Notes: generated by a model not told the origin, from the letters alone. Numbered from the stretch's first letter, positions 56,916 to 64,000 are shown. The stretch: DNA of 64,000 bases from Anaerolineales bacterium UBA2200 (GCA_002327925.1 DCVA01000043.1:5948-69947), one strand, 5' to 3'. Made by a program: numbers and translations.

Positions 56916-57311
56916 CTAGGCGGCCCACATGGTTTGAATGTGGCGTATCGCCTGTGTGCTGGTGCGGCGGTATCGCGCACCATCCGCCACCAGCAGCGCC
57001 AGGATCAGCTCCTCCTGATCAACGTGAAAGAAGCGGCAAACGAGCCGGGAGCGATTCCGGTCGTAGAGGCTCACTTCGTCAAGCTCCCCCATGCCCAGTT
57101 CTGAGCGCGCGTCCTTGCTGACCTTGCGCAGCATCGCCACCATAGCCGCAGTGAGCTGCGCATCGAGCGAGGAGGGTGACGTGGCGATGGGGAGGCCATC
57201 GCTGGTAGCCAGAATGGCAGCCTGAAACGAACCCTGACGACTGAGCTCAGTAAGCACCTCTTCGAACCGGGTCGGGGCTGGCGTCTGCGCGGTGCTGTGC
57301 TCTGGTTGCAT
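56916..57311 (-). CDS. Roadblock/LC7 domain protein
   Basis: F..VL..L...G.FQAAILATSDGLPIA and AAMVA, consistent with the roadblock topology. Confidence 0.85.
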   Translation of the reverse strand: MQPEHSTAQTPAPTRFEEVLTELSRQGSFQAAILATSDGLPIATSPSSLDAQLTAAMVAMLRKVSKDARSELGMGELDEVSLYDRNRSRLVCRFFHVDQEELILALLVADGARYRRTSTQAIRHIQTMWAA

Positions 57312-57378
57312 GGCTTGTATGCCTCCATTCTGACTCGTTTGTCTCGGCATGGTGTTTCCTGGTCGATTGGCTCGTTAG

Positions 57379-57861
57379 CTAGCGTCCGAATGTCTTGAGA
57401 AAACCATTAAGGCCCCGCGCCTTGGCCGGAGTCGTCTCTTCCGAAGTCGGGGCAGCCTGTGGCTGGGGAGGTTCGGGTCTGAATGCAGGTACTGTCGGCA
57501 CCTCAGGACGGTTCTTCAGTGCGGCCTGAAGCTTGGGAATGGCGACGTCGGCTGTGAGGTTGAGCAACGGGATGCTAATGCGCGGCTCGCAGACGATGCA
57601 CAGGCATCCCCCCTGGAGCGGCTTGAGGATGACTCTGCCTCCGGTGTAGACGAGGTCGACATCGACCTTCTTGCGCTTGGATGCACGCAGGCCTGCAATA
57701 GCCTGCGCTGCGGTGTGCCCGACGACAGACAACGCATGATCGCGGGGCAGGGTGCGCAGAGAGTGCGCCAGTATGTCGCCCGTCTCATCGCAGACAAAGC
57801 AGCCATTCACTCCTACCACGTTGCTGATAGTCCGCAGGACGTCTTCCATATCCCACCCCAT
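57379..57861 (-). CDS. Roadblock/LC7 (MglC-like) protein with a Pro-rich linker and amphipathic tail
   Basis: L..I..VVGVNGCFVCDETG.ILA, DLVYTGGRVIL and NL..D (MglC-like). C-terminal GLNGFLKTFGR. Confidence 0.75.
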   Translation of the reverse strand: MGWDMEDVLRTISNVVGVNGCFVCDETGDILAHSLRTLPRDHALSVVGHTAAQAIAGLRASKRKKVDVDLVYTGGRVILKPLQGGCLCIVCEPRISIPLLNLTADVAIPKLQAALKNRPEVPTVPAFRPEPPQPQAAPTSEETTPAKARGLNGFLKTFGR

Positions 57862-57863
57862 TC

Positions 57864-58550
57864 TTATCGAAGGATGCTCGCTATTTTGGCGGCGACCAGA
57901 GCTGGAGAGGCCCTCTCTGCCAGCAGGAGCCCTACATAGAAATCCGGTCTCTCGACAATAAGGAGTCTTGCCTTTGTACCCAATGTCTCCACAACACCGC
58001 GCTCGAATGGGCCTAGGCCGAGACTTTCCCCGATCTGCGAAGCTGCGCTGCCCACAAAGACCGCAACTGCACCCTCCTTCTCAGGATCGGCTGCCATCTC
58101 AGCGGCGATGACGTTACCATCGCGGGCCACGAGAACCACGCCTGTCACGCCGTCGACTGAGCGCAACCTTGCGGCATGGTTATCGGCCTCGGTGGCAGGC
58201 ACGTCGGGCTCCAGGTCTTCTGGGAGTCCGGCAAGCTCAGTGCTTCTCTCATCGACACGCTGCATGCCTTCAAGAAGCAGCGTCGACCAGGGAGTTTGCA
58301 CCGTCTGACGAGGGGCGGGAATGCCCGGCTCCAGCTCAAACTCACCGTCTTCCCAGGCGAGCAGTTCGTGGATCACCTCGTCGCCTTCCATGTCGCCGAG
58401 TGTCATGTGGACGATGTTACCTTCGGCGAAGAAGATGACGGCCTCCTGATCATTGTGCCACACCTCAAGTCGGGCCTGGTTCATCTCGTTGCAGTTCACC
58501 GAAATGAGACTGGCCAGGCTGATATCCTTGAGTTTGCCCCTCACCGCCAT
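57864..58550 (-). CDS. DUF4388 (PatA-N-like) domain fused to a roadblock domain
   Basis: RGKLKDISLASLI, IFFAEGNIVH, LLAWEDGEFE and LLLEGMQRVDE, then LRSVDGVTGVVLVARDG. Confidence 0.85.
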   Translation of the reverse strand: MAVRGKLKDISLASLISVNCNEMNQARLEVWHNDQEAVIFFAEGNIVHMTLGDMEGDEVIHELLAWEDGEFELEPGIPAPRQTVQTPWSTLLLEGMQRVDERSTELAGLPEDLEPDVPATEADNHAARLRSVDGVTGVVLVARDGNVIAAEMAADPEKEGAVAVFVGSAASQIGESLGLGPFERGVVETLGTKARLLIVERPDFYVGLLLAERASPALVAAKIASILR

Positions 58551-58570
58551 CGGGTCACCCTCCATTCGAG

Positions 58571-59146
58571 CTACTGCAGTCTTGACGTGAGTATGCCTAT
58601 GATCGCCTTCAGTGTGTCCAATACGCCGATCCCTTGCGTCGCCACGGCCGGAAAGCACCGTGCCCCGTTGCTTCCCAGAAGACCTCGAAGAGTATCCGGC
58701 GGCAATGCCCCAGGCAGATCCTGCTTGTTGAACTGCACTACCATGGGAAAATCATCCACCCTGTGACCCATCCTGGCAACCAGCTTCTGCAGCTCAATCC
58801 AGGTCCTGAGATTGTCCGGCAAACGGTTACGTTGTGAGTCAACGACCAGTACAATCCCGTCTGCGCCCTGCAATACCAGCTTGCGCGTCGAAGCGTAGTG
58901 GACCTGGCCAGGTACCGTGTAAAGGCTGAACCTCGGCCGCAACCCCCTGATCTCTCCGAGATCCAGCTGCAGGTAGTCAAAGAAAAGAGTTCGGTCCGCG
59001 CGTGTCTTGAGTGAGATCAACTCGCTGCGCATACCCGGATTGGTACGGGCGTGGATGTACTGCAGGTTGGTTGTCTTCCCACTCAGAGCCGAGCCGTAAT
59101 AGACGATCTTGAGATTCAGTTCGTGCTGCCTGGAGTTGATGAACAT
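58571..59146 (-). CDS. mglA: MglA-family small Ras-like GTPase
   Basis: LKIVYYGSALSGKTTNL, RTLFFD, YTVPGQVHY, LVLQGADG, QFNKQDL and AVATQGIGV. Confidence 0.95.
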   Translation of the reverse strand: MFINSRQHELNLKIVYYGSALSGKTTNLQYIHARTNPGMRSELISLKTRADRTLFFDYLQLDLGEIRGLRPRFSLYTVPGQVHYASTRKLVLQGADGIVLVVDSQRNRLPDNLRTWIELQKLVARMGHRVDDFPMVVQFNKQDLPGALPPDTLRGLLGSNGARCFPAVATQGIGVLDTLKAIIGILTSRLQ

Positions 59147-59231
59147 GAATGTTCAGTATGCTAGGGCGACACGGGGCACACGCAGACCAGTGCACCCGCG
59201 TCCCACTCACGACTGCCAGGCAGCTCGACGT

Positions 59232-60200
59232 TCACCTTCGCCCGTTCGTGGGAGTGGCATCGAACAGGCTATCCAATTGCGCTTGGACCTCGGTTGTCAG
59301 GTCGCTACCCAGATCTACCGATTCTGACTCGCCAAACTGTTGGGTGCCCAGCACTGCTGCTGCCCTCTTGGCGAAGATCCATACCGCGCCGGCCTGGCTC
59401 TCGTCTCCGAAAACGGTAGCCAATAGCAGATCCCTGGTGACCTCATAGGTATATATGTGGCAATCGGGACCCTGGTGGTGGCTGGCACGGAAGTCAGAAG
59501 CGTTGCCAAGCTGCTTGGCCAGCTCTGCTGCGGCGGCGAAGGTTGCGGCGATGAGGGCGCCCAGGGTCGGTAGGTGCAGACCAAAAGTCTGACCCACCGA
59601 GTCGACAGGATAGCCGGCCGCGGTTATGAGAAGGACACACCGCGCGCGCGTGTCACTCAAAAGTCGCTCGAGGATGCCATGACCCGTTGACACGGGGATC
59701 GGCGCAGGCACTTCACCTGACCCAATTTGCTGCTCTGCCGAGCGACTGCCGCCTCGAGCGGCGACAGGCAGGACATCCGCATCGCCGGCCACCGAGATGT
59801 CCGGTGCAGCCTTCCCGGTGCGAGGCCTGGTGGCACTAACCACCTCCATCATTGCTCGGACGGTGATCGGTTTGGCGAGATATCCGTCCAGCTTCCATCG
59901 CTGCGCTGTGTCGCGCAGGTCGGTGGCGCTGGAGCGGCCGATCACCAGGACCCTTGCCCCTGGGGAGGTGCTGTGGGCCGCTCTGGCGAACTCTGCGATG
60001 GCCAGTCCCGGCGTCTCCGCGTCGACCAGCAGAAGCGAGAACGTTCCGCGACGCAACATGGACCAGGCGTGTCGCCCGTCACCGGCCCACTCAACCGTGA
60101 AGCCGTTGCCACAGCTCTGAAGAGCTTCCATTACTGCAACTCTGGTCAAGGGTTCGGTATCAACAACCAGTACGGGTTTCGGCTCGTTTCGCTCTGCCAT
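59232..60200 (-). CDS. Response-regulator receiver domain fused to an MglB-like roadblock (GAP) domain
   Basis: N-terminal VLVVD..., LLLVD(AE) and LAKP. C-terminal VLLITAAGYP, LGALIAATFAAAAELAKQLG, HQG, LATVF and G.V. Confidence 0.85.
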   Translation of the reverse strand: MAERNEPKPVLVVDTEPLTRVAVMEALQSCGNGFTVEWAGDGRHAWSMLRRGTFSLLLVDAETPGLAIAEFARAAHSTSPGARVLVIGRSSATDLRDTAQRWKLDGYLAKPITVRAMMEVVSATRPRTGKAAPDISVAGDADVLPVAARGGSRSAEQQIGSGEVPAPIPVSTGHGILERLLSDTRARCVLLITAAGYPVDSVGQTFGLHLPTLGALIAATFAAAAELAKQLGNASDFRASHHQGPDCHIYTYEVTRDLLLATVFGDESQAGAVWIFAKRAAAVLGTQQFGESESVDLGSDLTTEVQAQLDSLFDATPTNGRR

Positions 60201-60374
60201 TAGCCCTCCCTGCATTGCCTTGCGCCTCTCATTAGGCTACACGCGGGTTCTGCCTGACTGCAGAACTGCAATACCGCCGGGACGTACAATCACTGACGCG
60301 CCACGGGCGCAGACGTCACGCCAGAGACCCGCGAAGCACTCCTCAACTGTTAGGACGTAGATCATCGCGTGTGG

Positions 60375-60403
60375 ATTCTATCCCATGAGAAAGTAGCTGT
60401 CAA
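60375..60403 (-). promoter_or_regulatory. Promoter TTGACA-17-TAGAAT for the mgl/roadblock operon
   Basis: The reverse strand reads TTGACA gctactttctcatggga TAGAAT. Confidence 0.75.
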
Positions 60404-60443: not shown

Positions 60444-60472
60444 TTGACCCAGGGCACGAACACGGATATGAT
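60444..60472 (+). promoter_or_regulatory. Divergent promoter TTGACC-17-TATGAT for the hybrid kinase
   Basis: Hexamers 17 nt apart, upstream of ATG 60505. Confidence 0.7.
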
Positions 60473-60504
60473 TGCAAAACAACCTTTGCTCGGACGGGGG
60501 TAAC

Positions 60505-63500
60505 ATGGTGCTCCAGAATGCCTCCTACCTGCTGCTCTTGAGTGCGGTTCTGTCGCTTGGTCTCGCGCTTCTTGCGGCGCGGCGGCGGCCCCTGCTGTCA
60601 ACTCCCGCGCCGATCTCACTCGCTTCTGCTGCCGGGCTCTGGGCGGTGGCGGAATTCCTCTCTCGCACCAGCAGCAGTTTTGAACTCGCCTCGTTCTGGC
60701 TCGCGCTCGGCACTCTCGCGGCTTCGATCGTTCCGGTGGCGGCCGTTACTCTGACGTTGCAGTACATCGGGCGGGGCCGGCTCTTGACCCGCTGGGCGCG
60801 AATGCTCTTGCTGGTTGAGCCGGTGCTCACGGCTGTGGCCGTATGGACCAACGCCTCCACGCGATGGATGTGGATGAGGCTGGAGATGGCTGGGGAGACC
60901 AGTTCGAGTCTGGTCGCCACGCCTGGTGTATGGGGCATGGTGCACGGTGTGTACGGCTATTCACTCTGTGCGGCGGCCACGGTGCTATTCCTGAGCTGGC
61001 TGCTGCGGTCCAAGCGCTCCATCTATGGTTCTCGATTTGTCTTGCTCGTCGCTGCTCTCCTCCCATGGATCGCCAAAGGAGTGACCGCTCTGCGTTTGGA
61101 GCCGCCTGGGGCGGTGGAACTCACGCCGGTTGGGCTCTTTCTCTCGTGCGCACTCCTTTTTCTCGCACAAGCTCGGAGCCGATTGCCGGGGCTACTCGCG
61201 ACTGCCGCTCAGGCCGTGTTCGGCGGGTCATCTGACCTGGTCATCGTGCTCGACTCGTCGGATCGGCTGGCGCATCTCAACCCGGCAGCGGAGCGCGCCA
61301 CGGCTCTGGTCTCCAGGAATGTCTCCGGCCGCGCAATTGCCGATGTCATGCCCGATTCGGACCTTGTACATGCGCTGGCTGGCGGACGTCCGGCGGGAGC
61401 GCCCGTCACGATTGGCAGTGGACCTGCTTCGCGCTCCTACGACTTGCACCTGGTTCCCCTGTATGGTGCCAGCGGTCGGGCGGCTGGCCGGATGCTGATG
61501 CTGCGCGATGCGACGGCGAGAAGACGCACTGATGAGGTCATGGCGGCACTGGCCCGAACGGAGAGGCTATACATGGCGGCGCGCTCCCTCATCACCCCCA
61601 ATCAGCCCCATGAGGTGCTCCAGGTTACCGCAGAGACCGTATCTCGAGCGTTGCCAGCCAGCCGCGTTGAGGTTGTGGCATTCAACAGTGATGTGACGCG
61701 CATCGTTGACTGGGCACAGGCGCCAGCTTCTGCTGCGGGGGAGACAGAGCCAGCCATCGAAGAGACGAAGACCGGTTTGACAGGTTGGGTGATCGAGCGG
61801 AACCAGCCAATTCTGACACTCAAGGGGGTTCCTGATTCGCGGGAGACCACTGAGGAGCAGCGCAGGCGTCTGGAGAATGATACCGGATCGCAGATCATCG
61901 CTCCACTGGCGGTGGACGGACGCGTAGTGGGTCTACTTGTGGCAACTAACCGGCGCAGCGAGCGGGATTTCGCCAGGGCCGATATGCACCTCGTGACCGG
62001 ACTGGCCAATCAGGCTGTCTTTGCCTACGAGCGGGCTTGTGCAGTCTCGTCGCTGGGTGAGCAGCTATCCCTCTACAAGGATGTGGTACGGGACCAGGAT
62101 GAGCTCGTCTGTCGCCGCCAGGCTGACGGAACGATCAGTTTCGCCAATGAGGCATATTGCGCCTTTTATGGCCAACGTGCGGATGAGGTTGTTTCCTGCC
62201 TCTACTACCCATCCACGCCTCCTGAAGAGCAGACGAATTTGCAGGAGGAACTGGCGATGCTGAGTCCGGATAACCCGGAAATCAGCCTAGAATCTCGCGT
62301 GCTGGCGCCGGACGGCTCGGTTCGCTGGATGCGCTCCAGAGTGCGAGGCACGTTCGACGCGCAAGGTTGCCTTGTTTCGAGTCAAGAAGTGTCGACGGAA
62401 GTAACGCATCAGAAGGAAGACGAGAAGACGCTGCGCGAGAGCGAACTCAAACACAGAGTGCTGCTGGACAGCATTGCCAGCCCACTACTGGCGCTTCGCC
62501 CTGATTCGACCATACTGTACTGTAATGACGCATTCGCCGCCATGACCGGACGGTCGGCGTCGGATCTGAGCTCCCAGAACGTGCTGGAGGTCCTGCCGGC
62601 GCTGGCAGAGAGCACGCTATGGGAAACGTTTCGCCGGGCTCAAGAAACGGGCACAGCCGGAGAGGTTGAAGGTGAGTTGGCCGGCCGATTCTGGTATGCC
62701 AGGGTCAACCCGACGCCGTGGGGTGTCCTGGCTGCTGCAGAGGACATTACGGAGCTCGTTCAGGCTCGTGACAAGGCACTCGACGCTTCGCGTCTCAAGT
62801 CCGAATTTCTGGCCACAATGAGTCACGAGGTGCGCACCCCGATGAACGCGATCGTCGGCATGACTGAGCTGCTCCTTGACATGCCTCTGAACCCGGAGCA
62901 GCGTGACTTTGCCCATGTTGTGCTGGAGCAGACGAATAGCCTTCTGCTGATGATCGAAAACATCCTGGACTACTCCAAGATGGAAGCCGGCAGGTTGGAG
63001 TTGGAGCCCAAGGACTTTCAGTTGCTCGAGTTGGTCAGGGGAGTGATTGACCTTCTCGCGCCGATGCTTCGCGACAAAGACGTGCGGATCCTGACGCAGA
63101 TCGCTCCGGAAATCCCTTCATGGCTTCGTGGCGACTCGCTCCGGCTGAAGCAGGTCCTGGTCAACCTGGTCGGCAATGCCTGCAAATTCACGGAAAAGGG
63201 GCAGATCTTTATCCATGCAGCGCTTGAGAGCCAGGGGGCGCAACACGCCACCATTCGTTTCGAGGTAAGCGACACAGGCGTCGGTATTCCGGCTGCCGCG
63301 CTCGGCCGTCTCTTTGAGCCCTTCACTCAGGCAGACAGCTCTTCCACGCGGAAGTACGGTGGAGCAGGACTGGGATTGGCCATATCCAGACGACTCGTTG
63401 AGCTCATGGGCGGCCAGATAGAGTTGACAAGCGAGGTGGGCAAGGGCACAAGCGTGTGGTTCACTGCCACCTTCCAGCCGTCTGCTGCGCCGGATCTGGC

Positions 63501-64000
63501 AGTCCTGGAGCCAGACCTTCAGGGGTTACGTGTGCTGATCGTTGACAGTGCGCCGGACGAAGCACAAATGCTGGCCGGCCACCTCAGCTCCTGGGGAATG
63601 CAGACAGAGTCGGCGGATGGCCATGAGCTGGCGCTGCAACTTCTCGGTGACGCGGCCAGCGCAGGTCGACCCTACGACGCGGTACTGGTCGCTCACGACC
63701 CTCCTGCTGTGGACTCTTTTGTCCTCCAGAGGGGATTGGCAGAGTCGGCATCACTGGCCTCAACGAGCGTCGTTCTGCTGGCGGGACCTAGCGTTACGAC
63801 TCCAGCCGGGGCTCCGCCGCAGGACCTGTTCGAGGCCGTACTACCAACTCCGATCGAGCCGCCTGCCCTGTTCAACGCGCTCGTCGATGTGACGCTTGGC
63901 CTTCCGAGGGTCAGAACGACCCGATTGCCCAGTTCCACCAGAGGCCAGGCCCCGCGACTCATATTGCTGGCAGAGGACAACCCGACTACTCAGACCATGG
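60505..64000 (+). CDS. Hybrid sensor histidine kinase (HisKA_7TM - PAS - GAF - PAS - PAS - HisKA - HATPase - pseudo-REC - REC), 3'-truncated by the window edge; missing from the ORF track
   Basis: My translation of frame +1 from ATG 60505 gives a hydrophobic N-terminus. The H-box [54 protein letters not shown] and the terminal ILLAEDNP are all in that frame. I spot-checked the frame rather than checking every codon. Confidence 0.92.
   Translation, partial: [1165 protein letters not shown]

Follow-up and report, generated by a model that had tools for sequence, protein, structure and literature searches.

A five-gene operon around an MglA GTPase

We analyzed a stretch of DNA of 64,000 nucleotides (nt) from Anaerolineales bacterium UBA2200 (GCA_002327925.1 DCVA01000043.1:5948-69947), here called the window, and in it a group of genes surrounding a GTPase of the MglA type; positions are counted from the first nucleotide of the window. 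A preliminary description, made from the sequence alone, had read these genes as an MglA operon with four different roadblock-domain proteins behind a single promoter. This reading holds, as the open reading frame (ORF) listing of the window contains five co-directional ORFs on the minus strand at 56916-60215, behind one strong promoter-like site. In order of transcription, these encode REC-MglB (59232..60200), composed of a receiver domain, a low-complexity linker of ~45 residues, an MglB-type roadblock domain, and a C-terminal helix that is conserved; a group 1 MglA of 191 amino acids (aa) (58571..59146), with the P-loop GSALSGKT, an Arg in the motif DRT, TVPGQ at G3, and NKQD; PATAN-Robl, also termed RoblP (57864..58550; 228 aa), in which a short-form DUF4388/PatA_N domain is joined by a disordered linker to a roadblock domain; Robl4 (57379..57849), with a divergent roadblock domain in residues 1-115, a disordered Pro-rich linker, and the conserved C-terminal segment RGLNGFLKTFGR; and Robl5 (56916..57350), a small roadblock/LC7 protein. 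The intergenic gaps are 85, 20, 14, and 28 nt in the same order. The four roadblock proteins are distinct from one another, with mutual identities of 12-19%, and profile-profile comparison marks their families as old paralogues.

The promoter-like site is of the sigma-70 type (TTGACA-17-TAGAAT; 60403..60375, minus strand), lies 5' of REC-MglB, and is a consensus match only, at 11 of 12 positions; the promoter scan found 3 sites, compared with 0.9 expected in shuffled sequences. For REC-MglB, the Shine-Dalgarno sequence GGGAGGG stands before the ATG at 60200, and an alternative ATG lies at 60215, so that the protein has 322-327 aa. We place the start of PATAN-Robl at the ATG at 58550 and not at the GTG at 58658, which overlaps mglA, because homologues begin at MAV(R/Q)G and GGAGGG precedes this ATG. 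An alternative ATG for Robl4 at 57861 would reduce the gap to PATAN-Robl from 14 to 2 nt.

The host genome (G000) is a metagenome-assembled genome (MAG) of 2.8 Mb and 88% completeness, and its nearest named relatives are Anaerolineales MAGs, in agreement with the earlier assignment of the stretch to the Chloroflexota. Searches of six-frame ORFs with custom hidden Markov models (HMMs) gave one match in the whole host genome for each of the five families, all in the operon, and Pfam roadblock and PATAN searches of the whole genome agreed with this result. Because the five HMMs each match once, and only in the operon, the module is single copy and self-contained. The absence of motility genes near the operon, also remarked on earlier, was borne out.

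Conservation and gene order

The operon is also conserved. A second genome of the same genus (G001; 95% complete) carries the identical five genes in identical order, with the same CoA-transferase and kinase flanks; the refuting condition named beforehand, a lack of conservation, therefore does not hold. In another member of the family (G002), the order is REC-MglB, MglA, a solo MglB, a Robl5 homologue, PATAN-Robl, a Robl4 homologue, and a HAMP protein. The extra solo MglB is canonical (Robl_LC7, E value of 3.5e-13), and the Robl4 homologue has a longer C-terminal domain. We also observed that the ORF of this solo MglB (L014:7890-8483) begins with MAVQSNLRDMSLSS, copying the first residues of PATAN-Robl (MAVRGNLRDMSLAS), which is encoded 1.2 kb downstream; this start resembles a copied 5' fragment, left behind when a rearrangement separated the window-type and G002-type orders. 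Two Anaerolineales MAG loci (L025 and L026) contain REC-MglB, MglA, PATAN-Robl, and Robl5 in the window order at 32-62% identity; their fourth gene is unclassified and only weakly similar to MglB, and the Robl4 family gave no match there.

A profile-based scan of GTDB genomes yielded 78 further loci, nearly all from Chloroflexota, which were annotated with the custom HMMs. Of the 32 PATAN-Robl loci that measured 12 kb or more, 25 also contained MglA, an MglB type, Robl4, and Robl5. PATAN-Robl was followed by Robl4 as the next module gene in 43 of 49 cases, Robl5 directly followed MglA in 41 of 56, and an MglB-type gene directly preceded MglA in 54 of 60. Given the identical gene order within the genus and the joint occurrence of the five families at many Chloroflexota loci, the cluster is not due to chance; this conservation, together with the family-specific HMM matches, rules out a fortuitous grouping or miscalled ORFs. 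We therefore describe the locus as a real, conserved five-gene operon around MglA with four regulators of the roadblock fold.

Gene adjacency, together with paralogy in the case of PATAN-Robl and Robl4, divides the set into two sub-modules, MglB-MglA-Robl5 and PATAN-Robl-Robl4. Comparison with hhalign placed RoblP and Robl4 closest (94.5% probability, E value of 8e-8), followed by Robl4 and Robl5 (74.5%) and by MglB and Robl5 (73%). This suggests PATAN-Robl and Robl4 as a possible pair on both adjacency and paralogy, and MglB and Robl5 on adjacency. The window operon has the PATAN-Robl-Robl4 pair inserted between its MglA and Robl5 genes. Of the ten genomes of the family, the five with PATAN are exactly the five that are positive for MglA.

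The cassette is found widely among Chloroflexota in richer versions, and the arrangement is thus less unusual than first implied. The larger form comprises a kinase, an OmpR-type regulator, REC-MglB, (REC-)PATAN-Robl, copies of Robl4/DUF8082, a CHASE3/HAMP sensor, MglB, MglA, and Robl5. It shares with the window operon the same five families and the successions of PATAN-Robl then Robl4 and of MglB-MglA then Robl5. The window version is the most compact and differs in lacking the HAMP sensor, a DUF2226/PATAN-like protein, and the solo MglB; in having its PATAN-Robl-Robl4 pair between MglA and Robl5; and in a Robl4 that has exchanged DUF8082 for a Pro-rich tail ending in a short motif that is conserved.

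Clustering of the flanking ORFs of 56 module loci revealed no recurrent motility machine or conserved effector. Only genes for signaling or adaptor proteins recurred, encoding a CHASE3/HAMP sensor without an output domain, a DUF2226/PATAN-like protein, and a HEAT-repeat protein; the window operon contains none of them. The first of these, a membrane protein with a CHASE3/4HB-like periplasmic domain and HAMP but no output domain, was seen at 22 loci (for example, L074:13054-13854, L080:13027-13827, and L033:8287-9066). It sits between the PATAN/Robl4 genes and MglB, or after Robl4 in G002, and is not found in the window operon.

The GTPase

MglA aligned over residues 2-189 with the solved MglA proteins of M. 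xanthus and T. thermophilus (6hjh/3t12; E value of 4e-55) and is 50-55% identical to characterized MglA proteins. Its motifs GxxxxGKT, DRT, TVPGQ, and NKQD are intact, and the alignment pairs the segments LYTVPGQ and TRADRTLFFD with the same residues in solved MglA. The protein displays the features of group 1 MglA as defined by Wuichet and Søgaard-Andersen (2014): it is a single domain of 191 aa (fewer than 240), has TVPGQ with Thr in place of the Ras Asp, carries an intrinsic Arg finger in G2, and has an mglB homologue within four genes, with REC-MglB ending 85 nt 5' of mglA. Judged by these motifs, MglA is a group 1 enzyme with its own predicted catalytic Arg and Gln.

Two observations on related GTPases may be recorded here. 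The MglA homologue of one class relative (G236:C48:2097-2651) contains an in-frame TGA and may represent a pseudogene, a sequencing error, or recoding. A second pair is common in the class, in which a long-form PATAN gene (domain of ~157 residues) stands beside a weakly MglA-like small GTPase with ~30% identity to the window MglA (for example, G018:C144:2703-4005). We saw this pair in G011, G012, G016, G018, G019, G021, G023, G025-G029, G032, G038, and G040; it resembles the "group 5" MglB-PATAN-MglA triads and is absent from the window genome.

The receiver-fused MglB

REC-MglB matched the Pfam families Response_reg at residues 15-126 (E value of 6.6e-11) and Robl_LC7 at residues 182-268 (E value of 1e-6, above the cut-off). 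The NCBIfam model of Thermus MglB matched residues 181-318 with an E value of 2.3e-12, extending to model position 160 of 161, and the protein scored far below the NCBIfam MglB equivalog cut-off NF052242 (47.3 bits versus 200), being a diverged paralogue with a fused receiver. The solved MglB proteins of Thermus and Myxococcus matched with E values of ~1e-8 to 1e-9 (~2e-9 over ~112 residues). Among 16 homologues, the MglB domain and C-terminal segment are far better conserved than the receiver, and the segment DLxxQxEAQLDxLFD is conserved after the roadblock core.

In a maximum-likelihood tree, 101 MglB-type domains fell into four groups. One contains canonical solo MglB encoded directly 5' of MglA (64 rows; support of 99/89), a second contains REC-MglB 5' of PATAN genes (11 rows), and a third contains solo MglB of ~200 aa 5' of PATAN-Robl. 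The fourth consists of six REC-MglB proteins encoded directly 5' of MglA, among them that of the window, with support of 100/100. Canonical MglB is kept in addition in G002 and not in the window genus, and REC-MglB is the sole MglB-type protein of the window genome. With canonical MglB missing from the genus, REC-MglB is the only MglB-type candidate for a GTPase-activating protein (GAP), if the system has one.

The receiver was aligned with solved receivers, including RR468, and with 15 homologues. It keeps the first acidic residue, the phospho-accepting Asp (LLLVD-AETPG, at RR468 D53), and the Lys (YLAKP). The phospho-Asp is retained in 14 of 16 homologues and the Lys-Pro is invariant; at the second acidic position, close kin have Ser and distant kin have Asp.

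The other roadblock proteins

The N-terminal domain of PATAN-Robl matched PF14332 (DUF4388) at residues 40-138 of the long ORF, with an E value of 1.5e-20 and 73.9 bits versus a gathering cut-off of 25. The C-terminal half fell below the Robl_LC7 cut-off by sequence (E value of 6e-4). In the AlphaFold model (predicted local distance difference test [pLDDT] score of 76), this half adopts a roadblock fold, with Foldseek template modeling (TM) scores of ~0.7 to Asgard roadblocks, MglB, and LAMTOR. The PATAN domain of the window is a short form, in which ~99 residues cover model positions 1-121, compared with ~157 residues for the long form in class relatives; it lacks the alpha-helical insertion of the PatA type, and its model is compact, with five beta-strands and three helices. 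No RxxxR or DxSxxG motif, as a PilZ-like c-di-GMP receptor would be expected to have, was evident in PATAN. The PATAN-Robl family comprises more than 276 clusters, and close relatives have the architecture REC-PATAN-Robl. Elsewhere, an MglB-type domain is directly joined to PATAN, as PATAN-MglB or REC-PATAN-MglB, in genes just 5' of MglA (L090:10001-10840, L098:8528-9340, and L110:8095-9400). These proteins, which represent an independent fusion of PATAN with a roadblock domain, occur in one Anaerolineae MAG and in MAGs of Thermodesulfobacteriota and Deltaproteobacteria.

Robl4 reached Robl_LC7 by sequence with an E value of only 0.019. Its AlphaFold model has a core with a pLDDT of ~90 and the canonical alpha-beta-beta-alpha-beta-beta-beta-alpha order of the roadblock fold, and the best Foldseek matches were LAMTOR2/p14, an Asgard roadblock, and MglB (TM score of 0.75-0.83 for LAMTOR2/p14 and the Asgard protein). 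The fourth gene had earlier been called MglC-like, and this label found no support in either sequence or fold. Searches of the PDB with Robl4, with a profile of 45 Robl4 sequences, or with Robl5 gave no match to MglC at E values up to 10, and MglC, whose own fold is marked by a shift of the alpha-2 helix, was missing among the top 50 PDB matches of the Robl4 model in Foldseek. We have therefore dropped the label for Robl4 and Robl5. MglB and MglC themselves share less than 9% identity, and for this reason a remote kinship of Robl4 with MglC may exist. As modeled, Robl4 is a generic roadblock fold closest to LAMTOR2. Robl5, by comparison, matched Robl_LC7 readily (E value of 1e-7) and Asgard roadblocks with an E value of 1e-3.

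In Anaerolineae, the Robl4 family usually has a C-terminal DUF8082 domain, in place of which the window genus has the Pro-rich tail. The linker of this tail is highly variable, and the last 12 residues, RGLNGFLKTFGR (57382-57417), are conserved, with the pattern RGLNGFL[KR]x[FL]GR in homologues of 57-79% identity. In appearance, the end segment suggests a tethered short linear motif or an amphipathic anchor. At L048:10707-11864 and ~10 similar loci, Robl4 homologues reach 385-430 aa by means of a C-terminal extension of ~260 residues that the window Robl4 lacks.

Pili and flagella in the host lineage

We found no PilT, full-length PilB-type ATPase, or flagellin in the window genome, in its same-genus relative, or in any of the ten genomes of the family. 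Among 41 relatives, a strong group 1 MglA was present in 9, PilT and full-length PilB-type ATPases in 3, and flagellin in 1; a CpaF/TadA-type ATPase was present in 36, with or without MglA. Across the class (301 genomes that were at least 85% complete), MglA occurred in 41 genomes (28 of 169 genera) and PilT in 22, and the two occurred together in 3, compared with 3.0 expected (odds ratio of 1.0, p = 1), a joint count that assumes that both searches drew the same 301 genomes. Thus, 38 of the 41 MglA-positive genomes have no PilT. Type IVa pili and flagella were rejected as the output on the basis of these whole-genome searches; as the lineage is without those machines, the output is not type IVa twitching or flagellar motility.

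The only system of the pilus or flagellum type found in the window genome is a complete Tad/Flp locus on another contig (C7:176014-184565), with genes for a TadE-like protein, RcpC/CpaB, a REC-ParA protein (CpaE/TadZ-like), a prepilin peptidase, TadB, TadC, a TPR protein, and CpaF. The near universality of the CpaF-type ATPase makes the co-variation profile uninformative for Tad, and the Tad pilus was set aside as a co-varying output.

The divergent kinase

Next to the operon and divergent from it lies a gene for a hybrid histidine kinase of 1304 aa (60472..64000, plus strand, running past the end of the window to 64386), preceded by a promoter-like site that faces it (60444-60472, plus strand; consensus match only). 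The domains of the kinase are HisKA_7TM-PAS-GAF-PAS-PAS-HisKA-HATPase, with the receiver region or regions inferred from sequence. In other versions of the cassette, genes for a REC-GAF kinase and an OmpR-type regulator lie just upstream, and because two-component genes recur beside the module at other loci, two-component input looks like a general theme. From its position and domains, the divergent kinase is a possible signal input and a candidate member of the system.

Relation to known systems

Several features of the operon are known from comparative genomics. Wuichet and Søgaard-Andersen (2014; PMC4316618) reported Response_reg-MglB fusions (five sequences) and described systems with MglA and MglB in a 1:2 ratio, and they located PATAN genes near group 1 and group 5 mglA, in line with Makarova et al. 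(2006), cited in their paper. The window has the same kind of fusion, a PATAN gene beside a group 1 mglA, and more than one roadblock gene per mglA. These features are treated separately in that catalogue, whereas the window combines all of them in one five-gene operon with four roadblock families, has PATAN fused to a roadblock domain, and has lost the canonical solo MglB. Our literature search found no published work on a Chloroflexota MglA-roadblock system. The operon is thus a compact, lineage-specific variant of a kind known from comparative genomics and experimentally untouched.

With the MglA-MglB systems of Myxococcus and Thermus, the operon shares a group 1 MglA, the same catalytic motifs, and an MglB-type gene immediately upstream; with Myxococcus, it also shares extra roadblock accessories (there MglC) and a link to receiver domains (there RomR and the Frz system). 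In Myxococcus, a roadblock-roadblock complex of MglB and MglC and the co-GAP RomY are established. MglC binds the MglB dimer in a 2:4 complex and has no GAP activity. The window differs in its receiver-fused MglB, in a PATAN-roadblock fusion within the operon, and in three further roadblock families that are not detectably related to MglC. RomR, RomX, and RomY were not identified, no search aimed at them having been made, and the host genomes lack the type IVa pili and the Agl-Glt gliding context of those organisms.

Other likenesses are more distant. Like the eukaryotic and Asgard Ragulator-Rag systems (LAMTOR2/3, LAMTOR4/5, and RagA/C), the operon groups several roadblock-fold proteins around one small GTPase, and Robl4 resembles their members at the level of fold, at 15-20% identity. 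Unlike Rag, however, the window GTPase is a single-domain MglA with no roadblock domain of its own, and there is no LAMTOR1-like anchor. The cyanobacterial PATAN-REC proteins (PatA, PixG, PixE, and TaxP) also join PATAN to a signaling or partner domain; in Synechocystis, PATAN-REC regulators bind two proteins of the pilus motor, PilB1 and PilC, and in Anabaena the divisome is contacted by PatA. PATAN-Robl differs from these in domain order and partner, with a roadblock domain that replaces, or is added to, REC; in its short-form PATAN without the helical insertion; and in a host that offers no PilB1 or PilC as target. Finally, the actinobacterial conservon CvnA-D has a group 2 GTPase with GTPGQ and no Arg finger, along with CvnC/DUF742, whereas the window MglA combines TVPGQ with an Arg finger; DUF742 was not matched in Pfam by any of the five operon proteins.

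A proposed mechanism and its alternatives

The preliminary description had proposed a polarity or positioning switch. This stays the best reading, and the phylogenetic profile run here argues against type IVa pili and flagella as its output. On balance, we regard it as probable that the operon encodes a self-contained GTPase switch of the MglA/MglB type that gives a spatial or positioning decision unrelated to either of these machines. We are much more confident of what the parts are, and less so of each step in the mechanism. By analogy with the MglB of Thermus and Myxococcus, a REC-MglB dimer would act as the GAP and reposition the Arg and Gln of MglA, and the conserved C-terminal helix of REC-MglB is predicted to contact MglA. 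The receiver might tune GAP activity or localization when phosphorylated by a histidine kinase, for which role the divergent 7TM-PAS-GAF hybrid kinase is a possible candidate. Robl5 may partner MglB and MglA as a co-regulator or as a competing platform. PATAN-Robl would pair with Robl4, its nearest paralogue and constant neighbor, through roadblock-roadblock dimerization, and we infer more broadly, from sequence comparison and gene order, that the roadblock proteins may form heteromeric complexes. The PATAN domain could then couple the state of the GTPase to a target machine or cellular site. Candidate outputs are the Tad/Flp pilus, an unknown gliding device, and the septal or polar organization of a filament.

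Several observations weigh against this proposal or parts of it. The GAP role of REC-MglB is assumed, and in the tree its clade is set apart from canonical MglB, the type found before MglA at most loci. In the receiver, the acidic pair is D-T and not D-D, a Gly occupies the Thr/Ser switch position, and two REC-MglB homologues have no phospho-Asp at all. With the acidic pocket and the switch residue degenerate and the Asp missing from two homologues, phospho-control may be weak or lost. Phosphorylation control of REC-MglB is plausible from the residues that remain; alternatively, the degenerate pocket might mark a pseudo-receiver that serves as an interaction domain. The kinase stands beside the operon in the same-genus genome and not in G002, so that its conserved adjacency is restricted to the genus; we saw no Hpt protein. 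The hhalign values are modest beyond the RoblP-Robl4 pair, and since MglB-Robl5 (73%) is not separable from Robl4-Robl5 (74.5%), the proposed pairing of MglB with Robl5 is based on adjacency and not on paralogy. In addition, the window genome, at 88% completeness, could miss a pilus gene; its 95%-complete sister and the whole family agree on the absence.

We considered other explanations, the most obvious being a classical module in the style of Myxococcus and Thermus that sorts the type IVa motors PilB and PilT to a pole for twitching. The 50-55% identity of MglA to characterized proteins would fit such a role, as would the binding of PATAN to PilB1 and PilC in Synechocystis, the frequent proximity of PATAN genes to MglA/MglB genes, and the presence of both PilB and PilT in one MglA-positive relative (G025). 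However, the ten family genomes lack PilT and full-length PilB and have only CpaF/TadA-type ATPases, which they share with MglA-negative relatives, and MglA and PilT are independent over the 301 genomes, with PilT absent from 38 of 41 MglA-positive members; we hold this explanation to be very unlikely. The Tad/Flp pilus might be the controlled machine instead, if PATAN-Robl or MglA-GTP acted on CpaF or on REC-ParA (CpaE/TadZ-like). A complete Tad locus is encoded, CpaF is homologous to PilB, a known PATAN partner, and such control would be compatible with the positioning switch as one specific output of it. The idea nonetheless seems improbable, given that the CpaF-type ATPase occurs in 36 of 41 relatives regardless of MglA and so shows no co-variation, and that the Tad genes lie on a different contig and were absent from every module locus examined.

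It is also conceivable that the operon has no link to polarity and forms a membrane-associated signaling hub, similar to a conservon or to Ragulator, whose output is gene expression or metabolism. The large sensor kinase adjacent to the operon, the REC-GAF kinase, OmpR-type regulator, and output-less CHASE3/HAMP sensor of richer cassettes, the lack of any motility machine that co-varies with the module, and roadblock folds most like LAMTOR2 all speak for a hub. Yet MglA belongs to group 1, with TVPGQ and an intrinsic Arg, and not to the GTPGQ type of conservons; the operon contains no CvnC/DUF742 and no DNA-binding protein; MglA is a single domain without the C-terminal roadblock domain of Rag; and all experimentally studied PATAN proteins act on spatial organization, either of pili or of the divisome. 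We consider a hub of this kind doubtful. A more specific version of the positioning switch, which we put forward as a tentative and rather unlikely possibility, is a Ragulator-like platform in which a PATAN-Robl/Robl4 heterodimer would sit on REC-MglB and Robl5, hold MglA at the septa or poles of non-twitching filamentous Anaerolineae, and control a process other than motility. Its targets might be, for example, cell-cell junctions, the choice of division site (as suggested by PatA and the divisome in Anabaena), or filament polarity. If true, such a platform would be a bacterial counterpart of GTPase scaffolds with multiple roadblock proteins, which until now are known only from eukaryotes and Asgard archaea.

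Implications

MglA is the best-understood Ras-like polarity switch of bacteria, and what is known of it comes almost entirely from Myxococcus, Thermus, and Bdellovibrio, in which it steers type IV pili or gliding. The family studied here keeps a complete, compact MglA module while lacking PilB, PilT, and flagellin. The five-gene set is small and tractable for the question of how several roadblock proteins share one GTPase, and it bears on whether a receiver-fused MglB is a signal-gated GAP and on what the partner of PATAN is where PilB is absent. Taken together, either MglA has an unrecognized target in Chloroflexota or it controls a spatial process other than motility.

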